From assembly GCA_964446735.1 (NCBI GenBank), contig CAYUQB010000001.1, positions 111,270-175,269 of the forward strand: a DNA stretch of 64,000 bases. The letters are read 5' to 3'. This stretch comes from an uncultured Candidatus Saccharibacteria bacterium. GTDB taxonomy: Bacteria > Patescibacteriota > Minisyncoccia > Phycocordibacterales > Phycocordibacteraceae. The translations under genes were made by a program, and so were the position numbers. Below the pieces are notes generated by a model, which worked only from the letters and a program-made list of their open reading frames with translations, was not told the DNA's origin and did not search any database. Within the stretch, counting starts at the first letter, position 1, and every line of letters begins with the position of its first letter. This document shows, in pieces, positions 2,491 to 24,138 of this stretch.

Positions 2491-3879
2491 CTAGGTGGGC
2501 AGATTCGACGGCGCCTCGCTCGTTGACGACTGGATGCGCGGGAGCGACGGAGTGGTCACACCACTCGTTGGGATATGAAAGAGCGTCGCCAACTCCTCAG
2601 TGTTCATGACGAGCCAGGGCATCTTATACGGCTCGTTGAAGTACGAGCGTCTCCGGTATGAGTCAACGAGCCCGTGCGAAACGTGGCCACGATGGATACC
2701 CTTTGGGTCCTCCCACGGCCAGTCATCAAAGTTGGCATACCATCTCGTGATCGCTAGGCTGTTGGTGATTTCTGAAGAGAACGGCTTCCACAATCCGATA
2801 AGGTGACTCACCACGATTCCTTGGAATGCATCGCGAGGAGCAGTGTAGAGCGCACGAATGCCCACATCAAAGAGCGGTTTCGAAAGTTTGCGTTCAATAT
2901 CTTCCATTTGTTTCTGCTGCCCTTTAGAGAGCGGCGAGAAGCTTTCGCTCTCGTACGATTCCCCGCTTTTCGGATCAATCTGCTTGGTCTTGCGCATCGC
3001 GGCTGCGCGAATCTTATCAATCTCCTCGTTCTTCTCGTCCTTAATCCCATATTTACTACCCGACTTGGTTTTCATACCGGCATACTTCTCACCCTTAGAT
3101 ACACGTACCAGTATCTGAATCCAGAACTGCTCCTTGGGCGAAAGTGAGCCCATGAATTCAATGATCTGGGCAAGGGGATCGACCTGCTCCTCAGGCTTTG
3201 CAAGTGGAGACGTCGGATTCATGAACTCAGCGTAGGTGCGAAGTGGATATACGTCCTTACCAAGCGAAAACTTGTACTCTGTACCCCAAAGATCGAACGG
3301 CGGGTGTGATGGATCAACGAGAAGGCTGTAATCTGTTGCTTCCACGATTTCAACTTCCGGGTACTGTGCGTAGATGTAGCTCTCGACGCCGCGCCTAAAG
3401 CCTTTGCGGGTTCGCACATAGAGATGCACGCGCCCCCCGAGCGATACGATCTCAAACGACCACGAGGGGCGGACCGCACCTAGCACGATCCGCTTCCACC
3501 ACGTGGACTCACCGGGTGAGAGATGGAGCGCGGAGAATACCGCCTCCATCGCCAGAGGTGTTTTGCGTACCTCACGAGGAACCCGTATTTCAAGTAGTAC
3601 GTATTCCTGTCGAGCAATCCACGCTAACCGATTAGCTGCCATCCAACGAATAATGCCGAAATACCCGAGAAGGATTGGAAGCCAGATTGGCGAGATGAGC
3701 GCCAGGAGCTCAAAGTTCTTGAGCGTCTGATACGGTGCAATCGTGAGGAATGCGACGTTAGCTGCAATGAAGCAGTAGATGAAGGGACGCGCAGTGAGCA
3801 AAATACCTCGCTCGTGTGCAAAGTGCAGGGGGTCAAAGCCTCCAGATGACATGGAGAAAGTATAGCAAAGGAGCCGCAC
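2491..3879 (-). CDS. hypothetical membrane protein (462 aa)
   Basis: Long ORF with N-terminal hydrophobic helices and a charged soluble C-terminal region. Adjoins the mltG start. Confidence 0.6.
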   Translation of the reverse strand: MRLLCYTFSMSSGGFDPLHFAHERGILLTARPFIYCFIAANVAFLTIAPYQTLKNFELLALISPIWLPILLGYFGIIRWMAANRLAWIARQEYVLLEIRVPREVRKTPLAMEAVFSALHLSPGESTWWKRIVLGAVRPSWSFEIVSLGGRVHLYVRTRKGFRRGVESYIYAQYPEVEIVEATDYSLLVDPSHPPFDLWGTEYKFSLGKDVYPLRTYAEFMNPTSPLAKPEEQVDPLAQIIEFMGSLSPKEQFWIQILVRVSKGEKYAGMKTKSGSKYGIKDEKNEEIDKIRAAAMRKTKQIDPKSGESYESESFSPLSKGQQKQMEDIERKLSKPLFDVGIRALYTAPRDAFQGIVVSHLIGLWKPFSSEITNSLAITRWYANFDDWPWEDPKGIHRGHVSHGLVDSYRRRSYFNEPYKMPWLVMNTEELATLFHIPTSGVTTPSLPRIQSSTSEAPSNLPT

Positions 3880-3915
3880 GATATGCGGCTCCTGTGCTGT
3901 TGATGCGGTGCGTAG

Positions 3916-5004
3916 TTACACCGTCGTGTACTTCCCTTCTTTGTTCTTCTTGAAGTACCGGGTGTCGTTGAGGTTCACCAGAATCGTATTGTCTTTCACG
4001 TAACGAACCTTCTTCACTGCCGTGATAACTTCGTCGCGGGTAAGCGCCTTTCCTTTCAGAACATCACGAATCACCTCGCGTACCACACCAGGCTGGAAAC
4101 CCCACTCGGCAAGTGCATAGAGTCCACGACCAACGAGGACAAATCGAGAGTCCTTGATCAGTTCGTTGTGCGTAGTTGCAACATGCGCTTTCTTTGAAAA
4201 CGTCTCGGTAATAGCTGCAGCAACATCGGAGAAGTGCATTGGCTCGCCCTTCTTCTTGATGACGAGATACGCGTAGTCGCGGATACCCTTCGTGCGGATG
4301 GCAGGTGCCTGTGCCTTACCCCACTCGGAAAGTGGGTTGCTTGCGATTGATTTGGAGAGCGAAAGCCACCGCTTGAGAATTTCTTCATTGCGGTATGCGG
4401 CATTCACTTCCTTCAATTCCTCAAGGAAGCGATTGATGATCTCTCCTTCCGGAAGCACTTCAGCGTCATCGAGTGTTGCATAGAGACGGGTGAGTGCCGA
4501 GTGGACCATATCGGCGGTGCGATGATCCACATGCCACCTAGCATAGAACTCATCGGTTTCGCGTTCGCGGAAAAAGGCACTTCCGACAACCAGGAGGAAG
4601 CGGATACGATTACGGCTCTTCTCATCGATCGCAAGACCGGAAAGGAGTGCGTCTTCAGGAATCACAGAGCCCTGGGCCTCGATGTATGCACGCAGCTCTT
4701 CAAACGAACCTTCGGAATCATGAAAAGCGCGGGAATGGCGAATGGCCTCAATACCGGAAGCCTCGATCTGACGGACGCGTTCGCGGGTAATACCCCAGCG
4801 CTCACCGATTGCCTCAAGCGTGTCGCGTTCGCTTGCGGAGCCAAGTCCGAATCGGTACACGAGAACCTCGCGCGCACGCTCTGGTACTTCAGCCAGAAGC
4901 TTCTTTACGAGCCCCGCGGTATCGAACGACAGCTTAGCCGGCTGCTTTTTGGAAGCCGTCTGAGAAGCCTTGGATTTGACTACCTTTTTCGCCATATTTC
5001 GCAA
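3916..5004 (-). CDS. sigma-70 region 4 (HTH) domain fusion protein
   Basis: N-terminal segment ...VLVYRFGL...TLEAIGERWGITRERVRQIEASGIEAIRH matches the sigma-70 region 4 signature, followed by about 250 aa of unknown function. Confidence 0.6.
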   Translation of the reverse strand: MRNMAKKVVKSKASQTASKKQPAKLSFDTAGLVKKLLAEVPERAREVLVYRFGLGSASERDTLEAIGERWGITRERVRQIEASGIEAIRHSRAFHDSEGSFEELRAYIEAQGSVIPEDALLSGLAIDEKSRNRIRFLLVVGSAFFRERETDEFYARWHVDHRTADMVHSALTRLYATLDDAEVLPEGEIINRFLEELKEVNAAYRNEEILKRWLSLSKSIASNPLSEWGKAQAPAIRTKGIRDYAYLVIKKKGEPMHFSDVAAAITETFSKKAHVATTHNELIKDSRFVLVGRGLYALAEWGFQPGVVREVIRDVLKGKALTRDEVITAVKKVRYVKDNTILVNLNDTRYFKKNKEGKYTTV

Positions 5005-5058
5005 TGATTAATGTGTTATAGTTATATCAAATAGAGTCAAAACCGTCAAATCTGTGGA

Positions 5059-7902
5059 TTACACCACAAGGTTAAGGACTCGTCCGGGCACATAAATGAC
5101 CCGCGCAGGCTCCTTACCACCAAGTGCGGCCGTGACCGCCGGGACGGTACGCATAGCTTCGAGAGCCGCTGCCTCATCGGCGTCAGGAGAAAGAAGCACT
5201 TCTCCTCGCTTTTTCCCGTTTACCTGAACCGGAACCGATACTTCACTCTGCTGTATGAGAGCCGGGTCGTAGCTTGGCCACGAAGAGAGATGAATGGAAT
5301 CACCCTCTCCACAGGCCTGCCACAATTCTTCGGTGATATGTGGCGCAAAGGGTGCCAATACTTGGAGAAACCGCTTCCACTGATCACGACCGATGCTCCG
5401 TGCTTCTTCGAGGGCGTTCAGGAAGACCATGCACTGACTCACTGCAGTATTAAACTTAAAGGCTTCAATGTCGTCAGTCACCTTTTTAATTGTTTGCTGG
5501 AGTGTCGACTCAAGACTGGGCGTATCGGTATCTACCACCAGCTCCTGTGCTCGCCAGATACGGTCTACGAACCGAGAGGTGCCGGCAATAGATGCAGTCG
5601 ACCAGGCGACAGTATTTTCAAAGGGGCCCATAAACATTTCATAGAGGCGGAAGGCATCTGCTCCATACTCCATAACTACATCATCCGGATTGATGACATT
5701 ACCGTACCGTTTACTCATCTTCCTTCCATCCTCGGCAAGAATGAAGCCGAGGAATTCCAAACGCTTGAAAGGCTCGCTCGTCGTGACAACCGCGATGTCA
5801 TATAGAAACTTATGCCAAAACCGAGCATAGATTAGATGGCGAACGGCATGATCTCCACCAACATACACATCAACCGGTGCCCAATGCGTTTCGCTCTTGC
5901 GAGAGACTGGTTCATGCTCGTTATGCGGATCCATAAACCGGAGGTAGTACCAGGATGAACCCGCCCACTGCGGCATGGTATTCGTCTCACGCGTTGCCGG
6001 ACCACCACACTTAGGACACGTGGTGTTCACCCACTCGGAAATACCTGCAAGCGGTGACTCGCCCGTTCCAGTCGGCTCGTAATGATCGACATCAGGAAGT
6101 CGTACCGGCAGATCCTCGTACGGGACTGGTACTACACCATCAGTCGAACAATGAATAAGGGGAATGGGCTCTCCCCAGTATCGTTGTCGCGAAAATATCC
6201 AGTCCTTGAGTTTGTAGGCTGTAGTGCGCCGGGCAAGCCCGTGTTCCTCGCAGTAGTTGATGATCTCCTGTCGTACGTGGGTTGCAATCTTGCCGGCAAA
6301 TTCCGTCGGCTCAGTAAGAATGCCGTTCGCCATATCGGTCCACGGTGTTGGCGCCTGGAAGCGCTTCCATACGAAACGCTGAAGGGGAGCAGTGAGGATA
6401 GTCTCAAGTTCTTCTCCCGAGACCCAGCGCATCGTGTGCTTACTGTTCTCGCTTTCCTCTATGACTGCCTGCTCATCATTCTCAAGTTCAAAGTAAAGCG
6501 CTTGGAAATGACCGAATCGGTTTTCCCCTTTCGGTGGATGATAGAACTGGCTGTGGGACATACCAAGTTCCCGAATGAACGTAGGATTCAGATACCCGGT
6601 TTCCTCTCGTATTTCGGCGACTGCTGCCTCAACCGCGGTCTGCCCCTCTTCGATGCCGCCCGTGATCATGGTGGTCCATGCCACCTTTTTCCAGTCCAAA
6701 ACCAAATACTTCTCTTCACTCCAGTGCTTTACAAGTGCGGTAATGGCATTCCGTTCAACAAACGGAAGTTCTGGACGTACCCTGTCCTCACCGCTGGTTG
6801 CAACAAAGAGTGGTTCAAGCACCTCCTTGAGAGGAATACCGAACTTATGTGCAAACGCAAAGTCTCGCTCGTCATGAGCCGAGCATTTCACAATACCGGT
6901 GCCATAGTCCGCGAGTGCGTAACTGGCGACCCAAATGGGAAGCTCTCCGTTCCCTACCGGATCGACGGTGTAGCGACCGGTGAAGATGCCGTCAATATCT
7001 TTCGTCCCCTCATACCCCGCTCGCGCTCGTGCCTCAACCATATCCTTGGCCTTCGCGAGTACCTTCTGCTCAGTCGGCGTCCCCGCGACTAGTTCAGGAA
7101 GTCGAGGATGATCTGGGGCAATAACTACAAACGTGTCTGCACGGAATGCTTCAAAGTGTGCCGAGAACGTTTCAAGAACGATGTCGGTATCTTTTACGGG
7201 CGAGCTGAAGATAAGCCCTTCCGAGCGACCAATCCAGTTCCGCTGCGCTTCTTTGATATGTTCTGGCCATTCAAGTGAATCAAGGTCGGATAGGAGTCGA
7301 TCCGCGTACGCTGTGATTTTTAGCACCCATTGAGGCAGTGCTCGCTTTTCTACTTTTGTGCCGCACCGTTCGCAGACATCTCCATCGAGGTCTTCGTTCG
7401 CAAGACCCGTCATGCAGGACGGACACCAGTTGATGGGTTCATTGCTTTGATAGACGAGGCCATGCTCGAACATCTTGAGGAAAATCCATTGGGTCCAGCG
7501 ATAGTAGTCAGGATCGGTGGTGTTGATCTCTCGTGACCAGTCGTAATCAAAACCAATGTGCGCAAGCTGCTCCTTGAAATGAGCGATGTTACGCTCCACG
7601 GCCTCACGAGGGTGCACTTTGTGCTTGAGCGCGAAGTTCTCCGCAGGAAGACCGAACGCATCCCACCCCATGGGATGCAAAACTGAACGACCTCGCATAC
7701 GCATAAGGCGCGAGTAGATATCTGTCGCTATATAGCCCTTTGGATGCCCTACATGCAGTCCCTCACCGGACGGATACGGGAACATATCAAGCACATAGGC
7801 TTTCTCTTTATTCGGATCATCACTGGCAGCGTAGATTTTGTCAGCAGACCATTTCTCCTGCCATTTCCGTTCTACTGCTTTGTGGTCGTATCGCTCTGCC
7901 AT
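5059..7902 (-). CDS. leuS: leucyl-tRNA synthetase with inserted Nudix-fold domain
   Basis: HVGHP (HIGH), KMSKR and YKLKDWIFSRQRYWGEPIP motifs. 947 aa, about 100-130 aa longer than typical bacterial LeuS. Confidence 0.9.
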   Translation of the reverse strand: MAERYDHKAVERKWQEKWSADKIYAASDDPNKEKAYVLDMFPYPSGEGLHVGHPKGYIATDIYSRLMRMRGRSVLHPMGWDAFGLPAENFALKHKVHPREAVERNIAHFKEQLAHIGFDYDWSREINTTDPDYYRWTQWIFLKMFEHGLVYQSNEPINWCPSCMTGLANEDLDGDVCERCGTKVEKRALPQWVLKITAYADRLLSDLDSLEWPEHIKEAQRNWIGRSEGLIFSSPVKDTDIVLETFSAHFEAFRADTFVVIAPDHPRLPELVAGTPTEQKVLAKAKDMVEARARAGYEGTKDIDGIFTGRYTVDPVGNGELPIWVASYALADYGTGIVKCSAHDERDFAFAHKFGIPLKEVLEPLFVATSGEDRVRPELPFVERNAITALVKHWSEEKYLVLDWKKVAWTTMITGGIEEGQTAVEAAVAEIREETGYLNPTFIRELGMSHSQFYHPPKGENRFGHFQALYFELENDEQAVIEESENSKHTMRWVSGEELETILTAPLQRFVWKRFQAPTPWTDMANGILTEPTEFAGKIATHVRQEIINYCEEHGLARRTTAYKLKDWIFSRQRYWGEPIPLIHCSTDGVVPVPYEDLPVRLPDVDHYEPTGTGESPLAGISEWVNTTCPKCGGPATRETNTMPQWAGSSWYYLRFMDPHNEHEPVSRKSETHWAPVDVYVGGDHAVRHLIYARFWHKFLYDIAVVTTSEPFKRLEFLGFILAEDGRKMSKRYGNVINPDDVVMEYGADAFRLYEMFMGPFENTVAWSTASIAGTSRFVDRIWRAQELVVDTDTPSLESTLQQTIKKVTDDIEAFKFNTAVSQCMVFLNALEEARSIGRDQWKRFLQVLAPFAPHITEELWQACGEGDSIHLSSWPSYDPALIQQSEVSVPVQVNGKKRGEVLLSPDADEAAALEAMRTVPAVTAALGGKEPARVIYVPGRVLNLVV
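6358..6780 (-). other. Nudix-fold insertion domain inside LeuS (approx. residues 375-515)
   Basis: ...YLVLDWKKVAWTTMITGGIEEGQTAVEAAVAEIREETGY... has a Nudix-like beta-strand plus REETG helix. The Nudix box is partly degenerate. Confidence 0.55.
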
Positions 7903-7908
7903 GAGGCT

Positions 7909-8928
7909 CTAGAGCGGCATGGGCTTGCCTGGGAAATCGCGCAGCGGAGGATACTTATCTGGATCAATGGTGCGGTCAAAGCAGACCATACCTGCGTCAT
8001 GCTTCCAGCTACCACCCCCTACAATCCCAAATTCAGAAGGGTATGCGACATCGCGTCCATAGCCTCCCTTTCCTTCCATGTCAGGAGTCGCAGCATTGAA
8101 TGTTGTGCAGAGTTTGAATGAAAGATTTCCCGTTTTCTCATAGGTGTAGGCGGCTTTCGTTTCCGGGTCAGTCGGCACGACATACCCCGAGAGTGCGTCT
8201 GTGAGTTCCTCAAGACTAGTCGGAAGTACCTGCTTCTGCTGGTAGTAATAGACAACCTGAGATTGGATGCCTTGGAGATCACTCGTCTTCTGCGAATCGA
8301 AACGCAGATCACGCATGTGCGAAGGAGTTCCAATGATGAAGAAACCGGCAGCGATCGTGGCGAGCGTAAGTACGCCAACGCCAATACCAATCATGTTCGC
8401 TTTCTTTGCATGTGCGATCCAATAGCCCTTGAGATCCGCTAGGAAGTGGAGGAATACTCCTGCGGCAACCAGTAGCACCACCAGTACCTTGAGACCGAAT
8501 CGGACAGTGATTTCCCCACCCAGGAACGTGTTCGTGAGCGTCACCAAGTCGACGAGAATAGTAACGGTAGCAATGAAAAGCGTGAGTACCAGTGCCCAGC
8601 GGCGTACCCAGATCGTTGCCTTACCGGGTTCTGCAACGATCGAGCCACGAATGAGATGGAGGCAGACGAGCGTCGTGGGCACCAACACAATGAGAGCGGC
8701 CATTGAGAAGCGCACTGCACCACCATACGGATCACCATAATAGGCGAGCGGATCCGGAAACGAATAATTGATGTACTCAAATACGAGTGCGAGGAACGAG
8801 CTGATACTTCCGTAGAGCGCAATGACCGTAAGGAGCCAGAGGAAGAAGTCTTTTGGCGAAGTTTTCGATACAGGAGCAACGGGTGCTGGAGCGGGTGTGG
8901 TGTCCATATGCGCGGAATTATACCACAA
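7909..8928 (-). CDS. hypothetical polytopic membrane protein (339 aa)
   Basis: About 5 predicted TM helices followed by a soluble C-terminal domain. Confidence 0.6.
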   Translation of the reverse strand: MWYNSAHMDTTPAPAPVAPVSKTSPKDFFLWLLTVIALYGSISSFLALVFEYINYSFPDPLAYYGDPYGGAVRFSMAALIVLVPTTLVCLHLIRGSIVAEPGKATIWVRRWALVLTLFIATVTILVDLVTLTNTFLGGEITVRFGLKVLVVLLVAAGVFLHFLADLKGYWIAHAKKANMIGIGVGVLTLATIAAGFFIIGTPSHMRDLRFDSQKTSDLQGIQSQVVYYYQQKQVLPTSLEELTDALSGYVVPTDPETKAAYTYEKTGNLSFKLCTTFNAATPDMEGKGGYGRDVAYPSEFGIVGGGSWKHDAGMVCFDRTIDPDKYPPLRDFPGKPMPL

Positions 8929-8933
8929 AACCT

Positions 8934-9434
8934 CTACATCTTGCGGTATATGGCGGTGTGGCCGATGGTGCCCTCGAACAGCTTCTCGAACCCAGGAAAT
9001 TCAGGAAGTTTATTGCCCGCGTAGTTGAGATAAAAAATACCTCCTGTCTTGAGAACGCGTGCAATCTCATTGATCATCGCGTCCTGATTCTGTTGATACA
9101 CACTGGTATCGAACGTCCCAACGGAGGTGACGTAATCAAATGTCTCATCCCTAAAAGGCAGTTGCTCTACATGTGCTGCAACTTGGTTTGAAAAGTTGTT
9201 CCGAGGTTCTCGATCGACCCCGATCATATCGATTCCCTGTGTGCGTGCGTACTCAATGAGCGCACCTTTCCCTGAACCAATATCAAGAAACTTACCCTCT
9301 GGATTCAGTTCAAGTCCGGCTTGAGTCAGCTGTATTTTGAACAGATTGAGCATATCTTCCGCTTCCAAATCGGTACGGGTGAGATCCTCCCATTTTCTCT
9401 CCGGAGAAGACCAGCTCTTCCGTTCAATACTCAT
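8934..9434 (-). CDS. SAM-dependent methyltransferase (small, 166 aa)
   Basis: Motif I LDIGSGKGALIEYA...IGVD, typical of class I methyltransferases. Confidence 0.7.
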   Translation of the reverse strand: MSIERKSWSSPERKWEDLTRTDLEAEDMLNLFKIQLTQAGLELNPEGKFLDIGSGKGALIEYARTQGIDMIGVDREPRNNFSNQVAAHVEQLPFRDETFDYVTSVGTFDTSVYQQNQDAMINEIARVLKTGGIFYLNYAGNKLPEFPGFEKLFEGTIGHTAIYRKM

Positions 9435-9450
9435 GGAGAAAGTATAGCGG

Positions 9451-10557
9451 CTAGCTATGGAGAAACACCATTACATCTCCATCCTTGGTCTCGTATGTCT
9501 TCCCTTCGGTCCGAATATCCCCTTTATCGCGTGCCGCGCTCCAGGAACCATCTGCGAGCAGCGTATCCCACTGAATGACTTCCGCACGGATGAACTTGTC
9601 TCGAAAGTCCTCGTGAATAGCTGCACCCGCGTCAGGAGCAAGTGCACCCGCTCGTACCGTCCACGCCCGACTCTCTTTGGGCCCGGTGGTAAAGAAGGTG
9701 ATGAGGCCGAGCGTCTCGTACGCGCCACGAATAAGATCCCGAATACCGTCATCTGTGACACCGAGCTCAGAGCGGAACATATCTTTATCCTCGTCTGAAA
9801 CATCATTAAGTTCATGCTCGGTACGTGCGTCAATGAGCACGTAGCGTGCCCCAAGCGACTCTACGTAGTCATATGCTTTCTGCGCACGACCATCATTCAT
9901 TTCAGCGAGATTACGCCCTCCAGACTTACCGTTGAATGCGTAAAGAATGGGTTTCAGGGTAAGGAGATTCAGCGATTTAATGAGTTTCGTCTCGTCTCCT
10001 CCCAGCCCAGCAACCATCGCAAGCTTCCCGTCTTTGAGTACCGCTTCAACCTTTGTAAGCACCGCATCTTCTTCCAATGCCTCCTTCTTATTCATCTTCA
10101 CATCCCGGACAAGCTTTTCCTTGCGGCGTGTGACGCTCTCTTGATCAGCAAGGATGAGCTCAAGATTGATGATTTCGATGTCCCGAACCGGGTCGACGTC
10201 TCCGTGCACATGCGTGATATCAGGGTCGTCAAAGAAGCGCACAAGCTCGAGAATGGCATCGGTCTCACGGATATTGGAAAGGAATTGATTTCCCAGTCCT
10301 TCCCCCTCTGAAGCACCCCGTACGAGTCCTGCAATATCAACAAATTCTATCGCTGCAGGCACGATCTTCTCGGACTTTGAGAGTGCTGCCAGCTGCGTAA
10401 GCCGTTCATCAGGCACCGCAACAACTCCCACCGACGGATCAATGGTTGCAAAGGGGTAGTTAGCAATGAGCGCATTCGCCTTGGTGAGCGCATTAAAAAG
10501 GGTTGACTTCCCGACGTTGGGAAGCCCGACGATGCCGATCTTGAGCATTAGGTACAC
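9451..10557 (-). CDS. ychF: ribosome-binding ATPase YchF (Obg-family GTPase)
   Basis: G1 motif GIVGLPNVGKSTLFNALT, the YchF-specific NxxE and a TGS C-terminal domain. Confidence 0.85.
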   Translation of the reverse strand: MYLMLKIGIVGLPNVGKSTLFNALTKANALIANYPFATIDPSVGVVAVPDERLTQLAALSKSEKIVPAAIEFVDIAGLVRGASEGEGLGNQFLSNIRETDAILELVRFFDDPDITHVHGDVDPVRDIEIINLELILADQESVTRRKEKLVRDVKMNKKEALEEDAVLTKVEAVLKDGKLAMVAGLGGDETKLIKSLNLLTLKPILYAFNGKSGGRNLAEMNDGRAQKAYDYVESLGARYVLIDARTEHELNDVSDEDKDMFRSELGVTDDGIRDLIRGAYETLGLITFFTTGPKESRAWTVRAGALAPDAGAAIHEDFRDKFIRAEVIQWDTLLADGSWSAARDKGDIRTEGKTYETKDGDVMVFLHS

Positions 10558-22937: not shown

Positions 22938-23345
22938 CTACATTCTGAACACTTTCGTCGCAACGACGTACGTAAGTCCTGCGGTAAGGGCAGTCATAAG
23001 TGTTCCCCACGCCATGTCGACCAGTGCTCCAAGCAGCGGCCAATTGGGAAGTGTTGCGAGGTTCGTGAGGTCGTAGGTCATGTAGACGGTGAAACCAAGG
23101 ACAGCACCGCCCGCAATTGCTTTCGTGAATGATCGTTCCTTGAGCGCGCCGTCGAGCACAAAGTAGATGAGCGCAAGTGCGTAGAGGATATAGAAGAGTG
23201 CCGCTGCCCACAGAAGTGGATCAGGACGGAAGAACGCTCCGAAGGTGGACTGGTAGAACCCAGCTGCGATAACACCAAGCCAACTCATGTCGAGTGCTAT
23301 AGAAATAGGAAGCGCGAGGCAGAAGAGCTTGAGATAGGTGTTCAT
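22938..23345 (-). CDS. small integral membrane protein (135 aa, DUF2177-like)
   Basis: Four hydrophobic segments. Confidence 0.55.
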   Translation of the reverse strand: MNTYLKLFCLALPISIALDMSWLGVIAAGFYQSTFGAFFRPDPLLWAAALFYILYALALIYFVLDGALKERSFTKAIAGGAVLGFTVYMTYDLTNLATLPNWPLLGALVDMAWGTLMTALTAGLTYVVATKVFRM

Positions 23346-23941
23346 ACGGTAATAGTACCCTGGCCGAGTAGGAAGTTTTGGAGCTCTGTGCGCTTCTCGG
23401 GATTGTACTTGGCTTCAATGAGAAGCGGCCGAAGGGCGGTGTTCTGGAAATCAGGTCTGCTTGAGAGTTCGATCAGCTCATCGAGTGTGACGACGCGTGT
23501 ACTGACACGCTCGCCTGCGTCAGTAGAGGGAGCTCCAACATATCTGCAGTTACGAGCGACGAAGAAGTAGACCGCAAAGTCGACTCTGGTTTCGGGCTGA
23601 AAGCCGAACCAGTACGTAAGCTCATCGCTCTCATACCCTGTTTCTTCTTTGAGTTCTCGTCGGGCAGTTGTGAGAGGATCTTCCCCTTCCTCGATATGTC
23701 CTCCGGCGAACGTGGTGAGTGGGACACGTCCTGGTTGTTCGTCGTATCCGATGACTATTCTTCCATCAGGAAGCACCGGAATAGCGACTGCAGCATCCTG
23801 AGTGCGCTTTGCCTTCTCAAACGTGGCTGTGCTTCCATCAAAGAGTTCCTGTTCCCATTGGTATATATGAAAGTCTTTGCCCTTGAATACGCAGGTCGCA
23901 TGGGGAGGGATTGGTTGGCGACTTACGGGCCGTTCGATCAT
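23342..23941 (-). CDS. Nudix hydrolase (ADP-ribose pyrophosphatase-like, 199 aa)
   Basis: Nudix box GGHIEEGEDPLTTARRELKEETGY. Confidence 0.75.
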   Translation of the reverse strand: MIERPVSRQPIPPHATCVFKGKDFHIYQWEQELFDGSTATFEKAKRTQDAAVAIPVLPDGRIVIGYDEQPGRVPLTTFAGGHIEEGEDPLTTARRELKEETGYESDELTYWFGFQPETRVDFAVYFFVARNCRYVGAPSTDAGERVSTRVVTLDELIELSSRPDFQNTALRPLLIEAKYNPEKRTELQNFLLGQGTITV

Positions 23942-23990: not shown

Positions 23991-24064
23991 GGACGATTAG
24001 CTCAGTTGGTTAGAGCGTTCGCTTCACACGCGAAAGGTCACAGGTCCGAATCCTGTATCGTCCA
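23991..24064 (+). tRNA. tRNA-Val (anticodon CAC), unusual T-loop UCCGAAU
   Basis: Acceptor GGACGAT/ATCGTCC, anticodon loop UUCACAC, T-loop with C at position 55. Confidence 0.75.
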
Positions 24065-24065
24065 C

Positions 24066-24136
24066 CGGGCCGTGGTATAGTGGTATTACGTACGCTTCGG
24101 GTGCGTATAACCCGAGTTCGATTCTCGGCGGCCCGA
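24066..24136 (+). tRNA. tRNA-Pro (anticodon CGG)
   Basis: C1:G72 acceptor CGGGCCG/CGGCCCG, anticodon loop UUCGGGU, T-loop TTCGATT. Starts 1 nt after tRNA-Val. Confidence 0.8.
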
Positions 24137-24138
24137 CT

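Follow-up and report, generated by a model that had tools for sequence, protein, structure and literature searches.

Aminoacyl-tRNA synthetases (aaRSs) are among the most conserved enzymes, and to our knowledge those of bacteria rarely host additional catalytic domains. Precedents for an extra enzymatic or accessory domain are offered by the class Ia enzyme IleRS with an embedded GNAT domain (NCBIfam NF040702, 'ileS_w_GNAT') and by the domains appended to eukaryotic aaRSs. IleRS-GNAT differs from the fusion analyzed here in both its host enzyme and its guest fold, and we know of no description of cassette-like exchange for either of these precedents.

The closest host is canonical leucyl-tRNA synthetase (LeuRS), as represented by the enzymes of T. 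thermophilus (Tth; 1H3N/2BYT) and E. coli (4AQ7/4ARC). These share with the LeuRS encoded in the window (the whole stretch of 64,000 nucleotides that was analyzed) the HIGH motif, ZN1, a CP1 domain following ZN1, the KMSKS motif, and the anticodon-binding and C-terminal domains, with a TM-score of approximately 0.7 despite the insert in the latter. The canonical enzymes carry a 16-residue loop (Tth 364-379) where the window's LeuRS has a Nudix domain of about 150 amino acids; they also display the TTRPDT editing motif and a leucine-specific domain, whereas the window's enzyme reads SAHFEA and lacks the latter domain.

The host LeuRS and its inserted Nudix module

The preliminary description had proposed an embedded Nudix-fold domain at positions 6358-6780 (residues 375-515), and a single long ORF, that of leuS, spans this interval (Table 1). 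In an HMM search its product passed the equivalog threshold of TIGR00396 (leuS_bact; 902 bits, cutoff 548), and it aligned to T. thermophilus LeuRS (1h3n) with an E-value of 3e-207. The AF2 model of the full protein has a pLDDT of 89.9, and its best Foldseek matches are all LeuRS. Before KMSKS, the approximately 58 residues of the leucine-specific domain (Tth 581-637) have no counterpart, and the peptide A-E-D-G-R is found instead. The enzyme retains HIGH, KMSKS and the editing Asp, and to judge from these motifs it has kept its own chemistry.

When aligned to the T. thermophilus enzyme, query residues 364-525 stand in place of the 16-residue loop. The insert is thus located inside CP1, C-terminal to the HDxRD motif and followed by some 45 more CP1 residues before YKLKDW; its initial placement between the editing domain and the core does not hold. 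The upstream part of CP1 is matched by PF13603 over residues 221-364 (profile positions 1-142 of 185, 106.9 bits). Relatives without the Nudix module have 21 residues at the insertion site, and in Nudix-less orthologues the C-terminal remainder of CP1 is contiguous with the upstream part.

The module is matched significantly by PF00293 (E-value of 6e-11 in the full protein; 46.5 bits for the excised segment), and displays the alpha/beta/alpha Nudix fold with its box on a loop-helix-loop. It was modeled with pLDDT values of 93-97 within the full-length protein and 92.9 when excised, while both connectors to CP1 have values above 92, so that rigid docking onto CP1 is predicted with confidence. 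The Pfam match and the independent predicted fold bear out the embedded domain that had been proposed, and the segment is not a mere expansion of a LeuRS element. We conclude that this LeuRS, in other respects an ordinary bacterial-type enzyme, carries a complete Nudix module of approximately 152 amino acids, inserted in frame at a surface loop of its CP1 domain.

Table 1. Coordinates in the window of leuS and of the features discussed in the text.
Feature	Position	Strand	Basis or remark
leuS, bacterial-type leucyl-tRNA synthetase	5059..7902	-	947 aa, single uninterrupted ORF
HIGH motif H50-V-G-H53	7744..7755	-	Sequence reading; H50, G52, H53 invariant in 99 LeuRS
CP1 N-terminal part, residues 226-365, to insertion point	6808..7227	-	PF13603 and Tth LeuRS alignment
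Thr-rich editing motif variant F-S-A-H-F-E-A-F (canonical F-T-T-R-P-D-T)	7144..7167	-	Alignment
HDERD motif with editing-site Asp D347	6862..6876	-	Aligned to Tth D344/D347
Nudix module, inserted cassette, residues ~365-517	6352..6810	-	Bounds from Nudix-less orthologues
Pfam NUDIX PF00293 match, residues 408-501	6400..6681	-	42.8 bits in the full protein, gathering cutoff 21.1
Nudix box GGIEEGQTAVEAAVAEIREETGY (G x5 Q x7 A-E-I-x-E-E-x-G-Y), residues 415-437	6592..6660	-	Sequence reading
K458-G-E-N-R462 basic motif downstream of box, putative phosphate binding	6517..6531	-	Conservation
E485, conserved acidic residue outside box	6448..6450	-	Conservation, embedded and free-standing copies
CP1 C-terminal remainder, residues 518-563, back to catalytic core	6214..6351	-	Aligns to Tth 380-417
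YKLKDWIFSRQRYWG core motif, Rossmann-fold re-entry	6172..6216	-	Block invariant in LeuRS alignment
A-E-D-G-R peptide at leucine-specific domain site	5722..5736	-	Query 724-729 vs Tth 580-638
KMSKS motif K728-M-S-K-R732	5707..5721	-	K728, M729, S730, K731 invariant in 99 LeuRS

Occurrence and exchange of the module

When the insert was searched by itself, the matches were all free-standing proteins of about 160 amino acids and did not include the window's own protein, a result that would suit a chimeric assembly or read-through of a separate Nudix gene. This outcome stems, however, from a bias of the word-index method: searching with the full-length protein recovered the window's own protein together with over 100 orthologues that carry the insert too. 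The window's ORF is free of stops and frameshifts. An identical LeuRS is encoded on one further, independent 11-kb Logan contig, and the same protein is also recorded on a 516-kb NCBI contig. In the best 80 GTDB loci the module is embedded at the same site in 66 and lies within leuS at another site in approximately 10, only 4 having no LeuRS segment within 3 kb. An artefact is thus extremely improbable, and we consider it ruled out.

PF00293 was found in 113 of the 120 best LeuRS matches of the full-length search, and the same insertion is hence present in related genomes. Of the 150 best-matching cluster representatives from a set of 1.84 billion proteins, 106 (~71%) are LeuRS or fragments of it. 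The layout is typical of Patescibacteria/Paceibacteria, where it occurs in hundreds of related species, and this Nudix family has diversified almost entirely within Patescibacteria LeuRS genes. The fusion had been called unusual, which holds against model organisms only; in its own clade it is the rule. Our literature searches turned up no account of LeuRS fused to a Nudix domain, and no NCBIfam model names this architecture. Several Nudix-bearing LeuRS are named only 'class I tRNA ligase family protein' in NCBI records, pipeline naming for which the embedded Nudix domain accounts.

The relationship between module and host was analyzed in a set of LeuRS that had not been chosen by module similarity. 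Module and backbone identities are uncorrelated (Spearman rho of -0.12, 4186 pairs), and at backbone identities of at least 80% module identity ranges from 17 to 92%. A similar flank/module correlation for the GTDB loci was dropped, since these had been selected by module similarity. Identities between the window's module and those of the nearest relatives of its LeuRS are 37-52%, as against 58-60% with one distant LeuRS module and with free genes. Nudix-less orthologues are found in the same synteny, scattered over the backbone tree. The lack of correlation and these losses indicate that the module behaves as an exchangeable cassette that can also be lost. In addition, some relatives carry two to three Nudix copies together with Ser-hydrolase and HAD modules, spread over four LeuRS loops; the latter two types occupy other loops of related LeuRS.

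The free-standing homologues of approximately 160 amino acids align end to end with the module (40-60% identity) and nest among embedded modules in a neighbour-joining tree. Some of their genes sit in clusters of small house-cleaning hydrolases. In one genome a free copy lies just upstream of a leuS that itself carries a Nudix module; the pair share no more than 30% identity, indicating that the copy is not a recent duplicate. Nudix-less orthologous loci have no free-standing copy within 10 kb. A complementary distribution of free and embedded copies is thus unsupported, given their co-occurrence in one genome and the absence of free copies near Nudix-less loci.

Conserved residues, candidate substrates and proposed role

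The Nudix box reads GX5QX7AEIREETGY (G415, Q421, A429, E430, E433, E434, G436 and Y437). When compared to the consensus GX5EX7REUXEEXGU, it has Q421 for the first Glu and A429 for the Arg, while the other seven positions fit, and the metal-binding glutamates E430, E433 and E434 are all present. The absence of the first Glu and of the consensus Arg could weaken catalysis. One alternative reading is that the module is a pseudoenzyme with a Nudix fold, which would sense nucleotides or have a structural or allosteric part in CP1. Conservation argues against this. In 92 embedded copies G415, E430, E434, K458 and W493 are invariant, E433 is found in 98%, E485 in 97%, R462 in 90% and N461 in 89%; in 51 free-standing copies, E430, E434, K458, N461, R462 and E485 are invariant, with W493 in 98% and E433 in 86%. 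An active enzyme would be expected to show such conservation. At the same site many sister LeuRS, close relatives among them, have boxes that follow the consensus throughout, and the free-standing homologues are apparently ordinary enzymes. A non-catalytic module is therefore quite improbable, and the invariant catalytic residues likewise disfavour the regulatory nucleotide sensor, taken alone, that had been suggested for this domain.

All 51 free-standing relatives, which belong to the subfamily of the window's module, have Gln421. The preliminary description was correct as to the substitutions and the retained Glu pair, but the decay implied by its term 'degenerate' did not stand, since Gln421, E430 and E434 are invariant, E433 is nearly so and canonical boxes occur in close LeuRS relatives. 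From the alignments, the variant box is a conserved subfamily signature and not a sign of decay. K458-G-E-N-R462 would bind phosphate and, judging from other members of the Nudix superfamily, E485 may coordinate an additional metal ion or serve as general base.

The location of the module within the editing domain, together with the non-canonical Thr-rich motif of the window's CP1, could point to amino-acid proofreading, in which the module would hydrolyse misactivated aminoacyl-adenylates, as was initially put forward, or stand in for a defective CP1 site. The TTRPDT motif (T247/T248/T252 in E. coli numbering) is indeed not matched. The SAHFEA variant, however, is kept in approximately 30 relatives both with and without the module, the module is equally common on backbones that retain TTRPDT, and H343, D344, R346 and the editing Asp D347, the residue that anchors the amino group of the substrate, are invariant in 99 LeuRS sequences. 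Moreover, aminoacyl-AMP has no pyrophosphate bond, and it is pyrophosphate bonds that Nudix enzymes cleave. Exchanges for Nudix modules with identities as low as approximately 17% and outright losses speak against adenylate proofreading as well, and we found no support for it; the reading is very improbable. Replacement of a dead editing site was rejected, since module and variant motif occur independently: the module is no substitute for editing, being found on canonical and variant editing sites alike.

Sequence comparisons with characterised Nudix enzymes gave weak and mixed matches. The best PDB match of the module is lupin Ap4A hydrolase (E-value of 0.007), and profile matches (NudB, NudI, Ap4A hydrolase) have E-values of 3e-5 or worse, so that substrate assignment from the profile search against the PDB was dropped. 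No family-level Nudix HMM reached its cutoff for the window's module. In Foldseek the best structural neighbour is 2AZW, an uncharacterised E. faecalis protein; ApnA hydrolases rank among the nearest structures, and RppH and decapping effectors (AvrM14, oomycete WY-Nudix, g5R) are also among the neighbours. A Tyr approximately 16-18 residues after the box is reportedly a marker of ApnA hydrolases. F453 and Y454 are located 16-17 residues after Y437, F453 being present in 98% of free-standing but only 57% of embedded copies. The structural neighbours weakly suggest dinucleoside or nucleoside polyphosphates (Ap4A/ApnA or NTP-like) as the substrate class, and by analogy an Ap4A-type substrate is a reasonable lead.

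An RNA-directed activity was considered as well, in which the module would remove a 5'-pyrophosphate or a cap (Np4A, NAD) from LeuRS-bound tRNA-Leu or other RNA, in the manner of RppH or NudC. CP1 adjoins the tRNA acceptor end in LeuRS-tRNA complexes (PDB 2BYT/4AQ7), and the weak NCBIfam matches, like some of the structural neighbours, are of the RppH type. However, the Ap4A hydrolase/RppH (NudH) subfamily models (NCBIfam PRK00714 equivalogs) score 15-17 bits, far under the RppH cutoff of 116 and cutoffs that range up to 259. The modules are markedly acidic (mean net charge of -6.7, and -9 for the window's copy), a property more in keeping with an enzyme that acts on small molecules than with a surface that binds RNA. 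The occurrence of free-standing copies in small-molecule hydrolase clusters and the dispensability of the module in orthologues also oppose an RNA substrate, which we consider distinctly improbable.

A further reading ascribes the fusion to aaRS chemistry and not to expression alone: the module would hydrolyse, in cis, Ap4A, Ap3A, Np4N or like by-products of LeuRS or of neighbouring aaRSs. The likeness to ApnA hydrolases, the near confinement of the family to LeuRS and the predicted rigid docking on CP1 are all in its favor, and aaRSs are a main source of Ap4A, which Nudix enzymes break down (PMC10148737). On the other hand, Nudix modules with as little as approximately 17% identity share the site in near-identical backbones, orthologues have lost the module, and the same proteins carry HAD and Ser-hydrolase modules that have no link to Ap4A. 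LeuRS itself is reportedly a poor producer of Ap4A. Such coupled clean-up is rather unlikely.

The reading that we favor, and to which we give an even chance, is that of a putative autonomous metal-dependent pyrophosphohydrolase that is carried by LeuRS and can be swapped between lineages. The module would hydrolyse a nucleotide-derived pyrophosphate compound with the help of a divalent metal. LeuRS would serve as its carrier, so that the module is made in a 1:1 ratio with a translation enzyme that is both essential and expressed constitutively, and the two would be coupled by expression or proximity, not by shared catalysis. Between its conserved CP1 flanks the cassette is swapped across lineages, duplicated to other loops, and occasionally deleted or present as a free gene. 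The near-exclusive association with LeuRS and the rigid docking predicted by the model could, nevertheless, reflect a closer mechanistic link than that of a carrier.

It is also conceivable, though unlikely, that CP1 of Paceibacteria LeuRS is a docking platform for interchangeable hydrolases, whose rapid exchange would be under diversifying selection and whose targets would be nucleotide signals, caps or toxic nucleotide analogues that come into contact with the translation machinery. The cassettes would be one to three Nudix modules, a Ser-hydrolase and an HAD module across the four loops, and examples of targets are Np4N alarmones or caps and aaRS-targeting nucleotide antibiotics. If true, this would amount to a new level at which nucleotide quality control, or conflict, is coupled to aaRSs, beyond simple gene fusion.

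Significance and comparison with described systems

In hundreds of uncultured, reduced-genome species, an essential LeuRS thus carries a second, probably active hydrolase in its proofreading domain. While the host LeuRS remains nearly unchanged, its guest is exchanged, lost or present in several copies, which provides a natural map of the CP1 and core loops that tolerate insertions of 150-220 residues, which could be of use in aaRS engineering. The fusion of a nucleotide hydrolase to an aaRS is also a test case for mechanism (Ap4A/cap clearance) or for minimal-genome economy. Minisyncoccus archaeiphilus is a cultured member of the class (PMC12281837) and could permit experiments, if its own LeuRS has the module.

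The closest relatives of the guest are the free-standing Paceibacteria Nudix proteins (P0001-P0051), which have the unusual box GGIEEGQT...AEIxEETGY in common with the window's module and are conserved at the same K/N/R/E/H/W positions, but are encoded by separate genes. They bear no annotation beyond 'NUDIX hydrolase' or 'MutT family', and none is characterised. Comparison with Nudix (di)nucleoside-polyphosphate hydrolases (Aquifex Ap4A hydrolase, 3I7U; T. thermophilus Ndx1, 1VC8; M. tuberculosis Rv2985, 9CXX; DIPP1/DDP1) and with the uncharacterised E. faecalis 2AZW yielded identities of only 11-21% (16-22% in Foldseek alignments), and these proteins have Glu and Arg in the box where the window's module has Gln and Ala.

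On the host side, the reduced-genome LeuRS of Mycoplasma mobile (3ZIU) offers a likeness at the site of the leucine-specific domain, which is replaced by a short peptide in both enzymes; in M. mobile this is the tetrapeptide GKDG (PMC3643597). The M. mobile enzyme has lost CP1 altogether, whereas the window's LeuRS has kept CP1 and added a second hydrolase fold to it.

A Nudix domain inside the CP1 editing domain of LeuRS

The segment flagged in the preliminary description (positions 6358-6780) translates to residues 375-515 of the leuS product, a LeuRS of the bacterial type that scored 902 bits against TIGR00396 in a profile scan (cutoff 548) and matched Thermus thermophilus LeuRS with an E value of 3e-207. 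The HIGH (HVGH) and KMSKS (KMSKR) motifs are intact. The leucine-specific domain (approximately 58 residues) is missing, as it is from all close relatives, including those without a Nudix domain; the A-E-D-G-R that stands in its place is reminiscent of the GKDG tetrapeptide of Mycoplasma mobile LeuRS (PMC3643597).

The proposed Nudix domain was recovered as a match to Pfam NUDIX (PF00293) over residues 408-501, at 42.8 bits, or approximately twice the gathering threshold, and at 46.5 bits when the excised segment was scanned alone. In the alignment to T. thermophilus LeuRS, query residues 3-363 correspond to Thermus residues 2-363 and residues 526-724 to 380-580, approximately 160 query residues replacing the 16-residue Thermus loop 364-379. 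This loop is located within CP1, downstream of HDxRD with its conserved editing Asp, which is why the Pfam editing-domain profile is broken at position 142 of 185. Approximately 45 further CP1 residues precede the YKLKDW strand, where the chain re-enters the Rossmann fold; the module is thus inserted inside CP1, and not between CP1 and the catalytic core as had been suggested. Close Nudix-less relatives (804-816 amino acids) carry only 21 residues at this point, and this comparison sets the module boundaries.

The full-length AlphaFold2 model, built on a 99-sequence alignment, is confident (mean pLDDT 89.9, pTM 0.79). Values of 92-97 extend through the module and both connectors, and thus the model shows a domain docked on LeuRS, with no floppy tether. 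Modeled alone, the domain reached a pLDDT of 92.9 and its structural matches were exclusively Nudix structures, in agreement with an independent fold.

Features of the window, of one related locus and of the LeuRS insertion sites (residues in window LeuRS numbering)
Feature	Position (nt)	Strand	Residues or remarks
leuS ORF	5059-7902	-	947 residues; sole long ORF across the flagged segment
A-E-D-G-R in place of leucine-specific domain	5722-5736	-	723-727, before KMSKS
Nudix module	~6352-6810	-	~365-517; bounds from Nudix-less relatives
GTG-IVKCSAHDERD replacing canonical GTGAVMAVPAHDERD	6862-6903	-	334-347
S-A-H-F-E-A replacing Thr-rich TTRPDT	7144-7167	-	246-253
Separate 199-aa ORF, textbook Nudix box GGHIEEGEDPLTTARRELKEETGY	23342-23941	-	free-standing
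tRNA-Val(CAC) and tRNA-Pro(CGG), abutting	23991-24137	+	ARAGORN, Rfam
Small-hydrolase gene run with free-standing family member	L003 1-12474	co-directional	GDPD, four Nudix, Ham1, Ser-hydrolase, HAD, His-phosphatase
Insertion site, extra Nudix copies			~210
Insertion site, PF06821 Ser-hydrolase			~240
Insertion site, window-type Nudix			364/365
Insertion site, HAD phosphatase			~633

Nudix box and editing site

The box of the window module (Nudix consensus GX5EX7REUXEEXGU) reads G415-GIEEG-Q421-TAVEAAV-A429-E430-I-R-E433-E434-T-G-Y437; as noted at the outset, the first Glu (here Gln) and the Arg (here Ala) are replaced, while the EE pair is retained. G415, E430, E434, K458 and W493 are invariant in 92 LeuRS-embedded modules, where E433 (98%), E485 (97%), R462 (90%) and N461 (89%) are also conserved. 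A search with the insert only yielded 51 free-standing proteins of approximately 160 residues from Paceibacteria-type genomes, 40-59% identical across the whole module and carrying the same box (GGIEEGQT..AEIxEETGY). The pattern is the same in these proteins (E433 86%, W493 98%, all others 100%), and all of them have Gln421. At this site, the boxes of sister LeuRS fall into three classes: a canonical one that fits G x5 E x7 R-E-U-x-E-E-x-G-U throughout, the Gln/Ala type of the window and a hydrophobic/Lys type.

Mutagenesis of MutT identified the Glu of the RE pair and the second Glu of the EE pair as the most critical residues, the first Glu being far less important. Since conservation in the module fits this pattern, we infer that the box marks a functional enzyme subfamily and is not a sign of decay. 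A non-catalytic module is a less supported reading. The modules are acidic (mean net charge -6.7; -9 for the window module), which argues against a nucleic-acid-binding surface and makes an RNA-directed function less supported as well. Profile searches gave weak and mixed links to characterized families (NudB at 3e-5, then NudI and lupin Ap4A hydrolase), and RppH models scored far under their cutoffs.

In the editing site, S-A-H-F-E-A replaces the Thr-rich TTRPDT of canonical LeuRS and GTG-IVKCSAHD takes the place of GTGAVMAVPAHD; all the LeuRS compared, variant included, keep the editing Asp. The variant is tightly conserved in approximately 30 relatives, both with and without the module, and canonical TTRPDT backbones carry the module no less often. 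Module and variant thus occur independently, indicating that the Nudix domain neither replaces nor needs a particular editing site; we consequently rejected the notion that it stands in for one. Adenylate proofreading by the module is also less supported. The T252A variant of E. coli LeuRS hydrolyses cognate Leu-tRNA, and this effect, together with the variant motif, suggests that editing in the SAHFEA lineage may be altered or even absent.

Distribution, exchange and loss of the module

The same insertion is widespread among orthologs, with PF00293 present in 113 of the 120 best LeuRS matches (from Patescibacteria, Paceibacterota, Minisyncoccia, Nomurabacteria and Taylorbacteria). Several of these proteins are named just 'class I tRNA ligase family protein' in NCBI records, probably because the naming model no longer matches well across the insert. 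In a GTDB scan (one genome per species), this type of Nudix domain was encoded at no fewer than 523 loci. Among the best 80, the CP1 site is again the point of insertion in 66, approximately 10 lie in leuS just upstream of the editing-domain segment, and only 4 lie more than 3 kb from any LeuRS segment. When 1.84 billion cluster representatives were searched exhaustively with phmmer, just 348 relatives were returned; 101 of the best 150 carry LeuRS segments and 5 more are editing-domain fragments (approximately 71% together). By these counts, the family is essentially LeuRS-associated.

One free-standing family member lies in the L003 run, which includes hydrolase families that are inserted in LeuRS, as well as a faint 2H-phosphoesterase-type match. 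At L005 (6001-9438), the free-standing P0004 precedes, by 60 nt, the gene for a divergent LeuRS (38% identity to that of the window) with a canonical-box Nudix in the same CP1 loop; P0004 and this embedded domain are just 30% identical. The 199-residue Nudix ORF of the window is unrelated to the module family apart from its box. Elsewhere in the window, the tRNA-Val/tRNA-Pro pair has essentially no spacer for end processing, base 24066 being common to both in ARAGORN, versus one base between them in Rfam.

The window module shares 58-60% identity with free-standing genes and with the module carried on a LeuRS backbone only 65% identical, but just 37-52% with those of its closest LeuRS relatives, though their backbones are 70-77% identical; for the closest GTDB backbone, the values are 80% (flanks) and 49% (module). 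Module and backbone identities are uncorrelated over all 4186 pairs of the 92 module-bearing LeuRS (Spearman -0.12), and at backbone identities of at least 80% module identity ranges from 17% to 92%. Neighbor-joining trees, which carry no bootstrap support, agree with this: the box classes form coherent clades for the module and are interleaved for the backbone, with Nudix-less forms scattered over at least four positions in the latter. Three Nudix-less orthologues (L087-L089) share the gene order of window positions 2491-10557 (YchF, DUF5671, leuS, Sigma70_r4 protein, DUF8128, YceG, MnmA), and no free Nudix gene was found within 10 kb of them; one orthologous gene is thus polymorphic for carrying the module. 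In such orthologues, the 21-residue linker (PEDxxLRE...) looks similar to the helix of the Nudix box (PEETVLKE), possibly as a remnant left by deletion; this is a weak lead, since the match is short and could be due to chance.

Some LeuRS of the clade reach 1100-1560 residues (P0139, P0152, P0106, P0121, P0088, P0065 and P0110) and carry two to three Nudix copies, a PF06821 Ser-hydrolase and/or a HAD phosphatase, at four sites in window numbering.

Proposed role and comparison with known synthetases

The best-supported reading is that the module is a predicted autonomous, metal-dependent Nudix pyrophosphohydrolase housed in a permissive CP1 loop; its structural neighbors hint at a polyphosphate substrate, of the (di)nucleoside type or another. 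LeuRS would supply expression, stoichiometry and possibly proximity, and exchange could proceed by recombination via the conserved CP1 flanks. Clean-up of Ap4A in cis is attractive, since aminoacyl-tRNA synthetases produce this compound (PMC10148737); however, the site accepts widely divergent Nudix modules in place of one another, the module has been lost more than once and hydrolases of other families are inserted in the same proteins, and thus exact coupling to LeuRS chemistry does not appear to be required.

Full-text literature searches found no description of the LeuRS-Nudix architecture, and its domain matches are already precomputed in public databases. Synthetases with an accessory domain are already known, the NCBIfam IleRS-with-GNAT model being a precedent, and LeuRS-Nudix is no new category; what distinguishes it is its wide spread, its cassette-like exchange and its multi-hydrolase versions.
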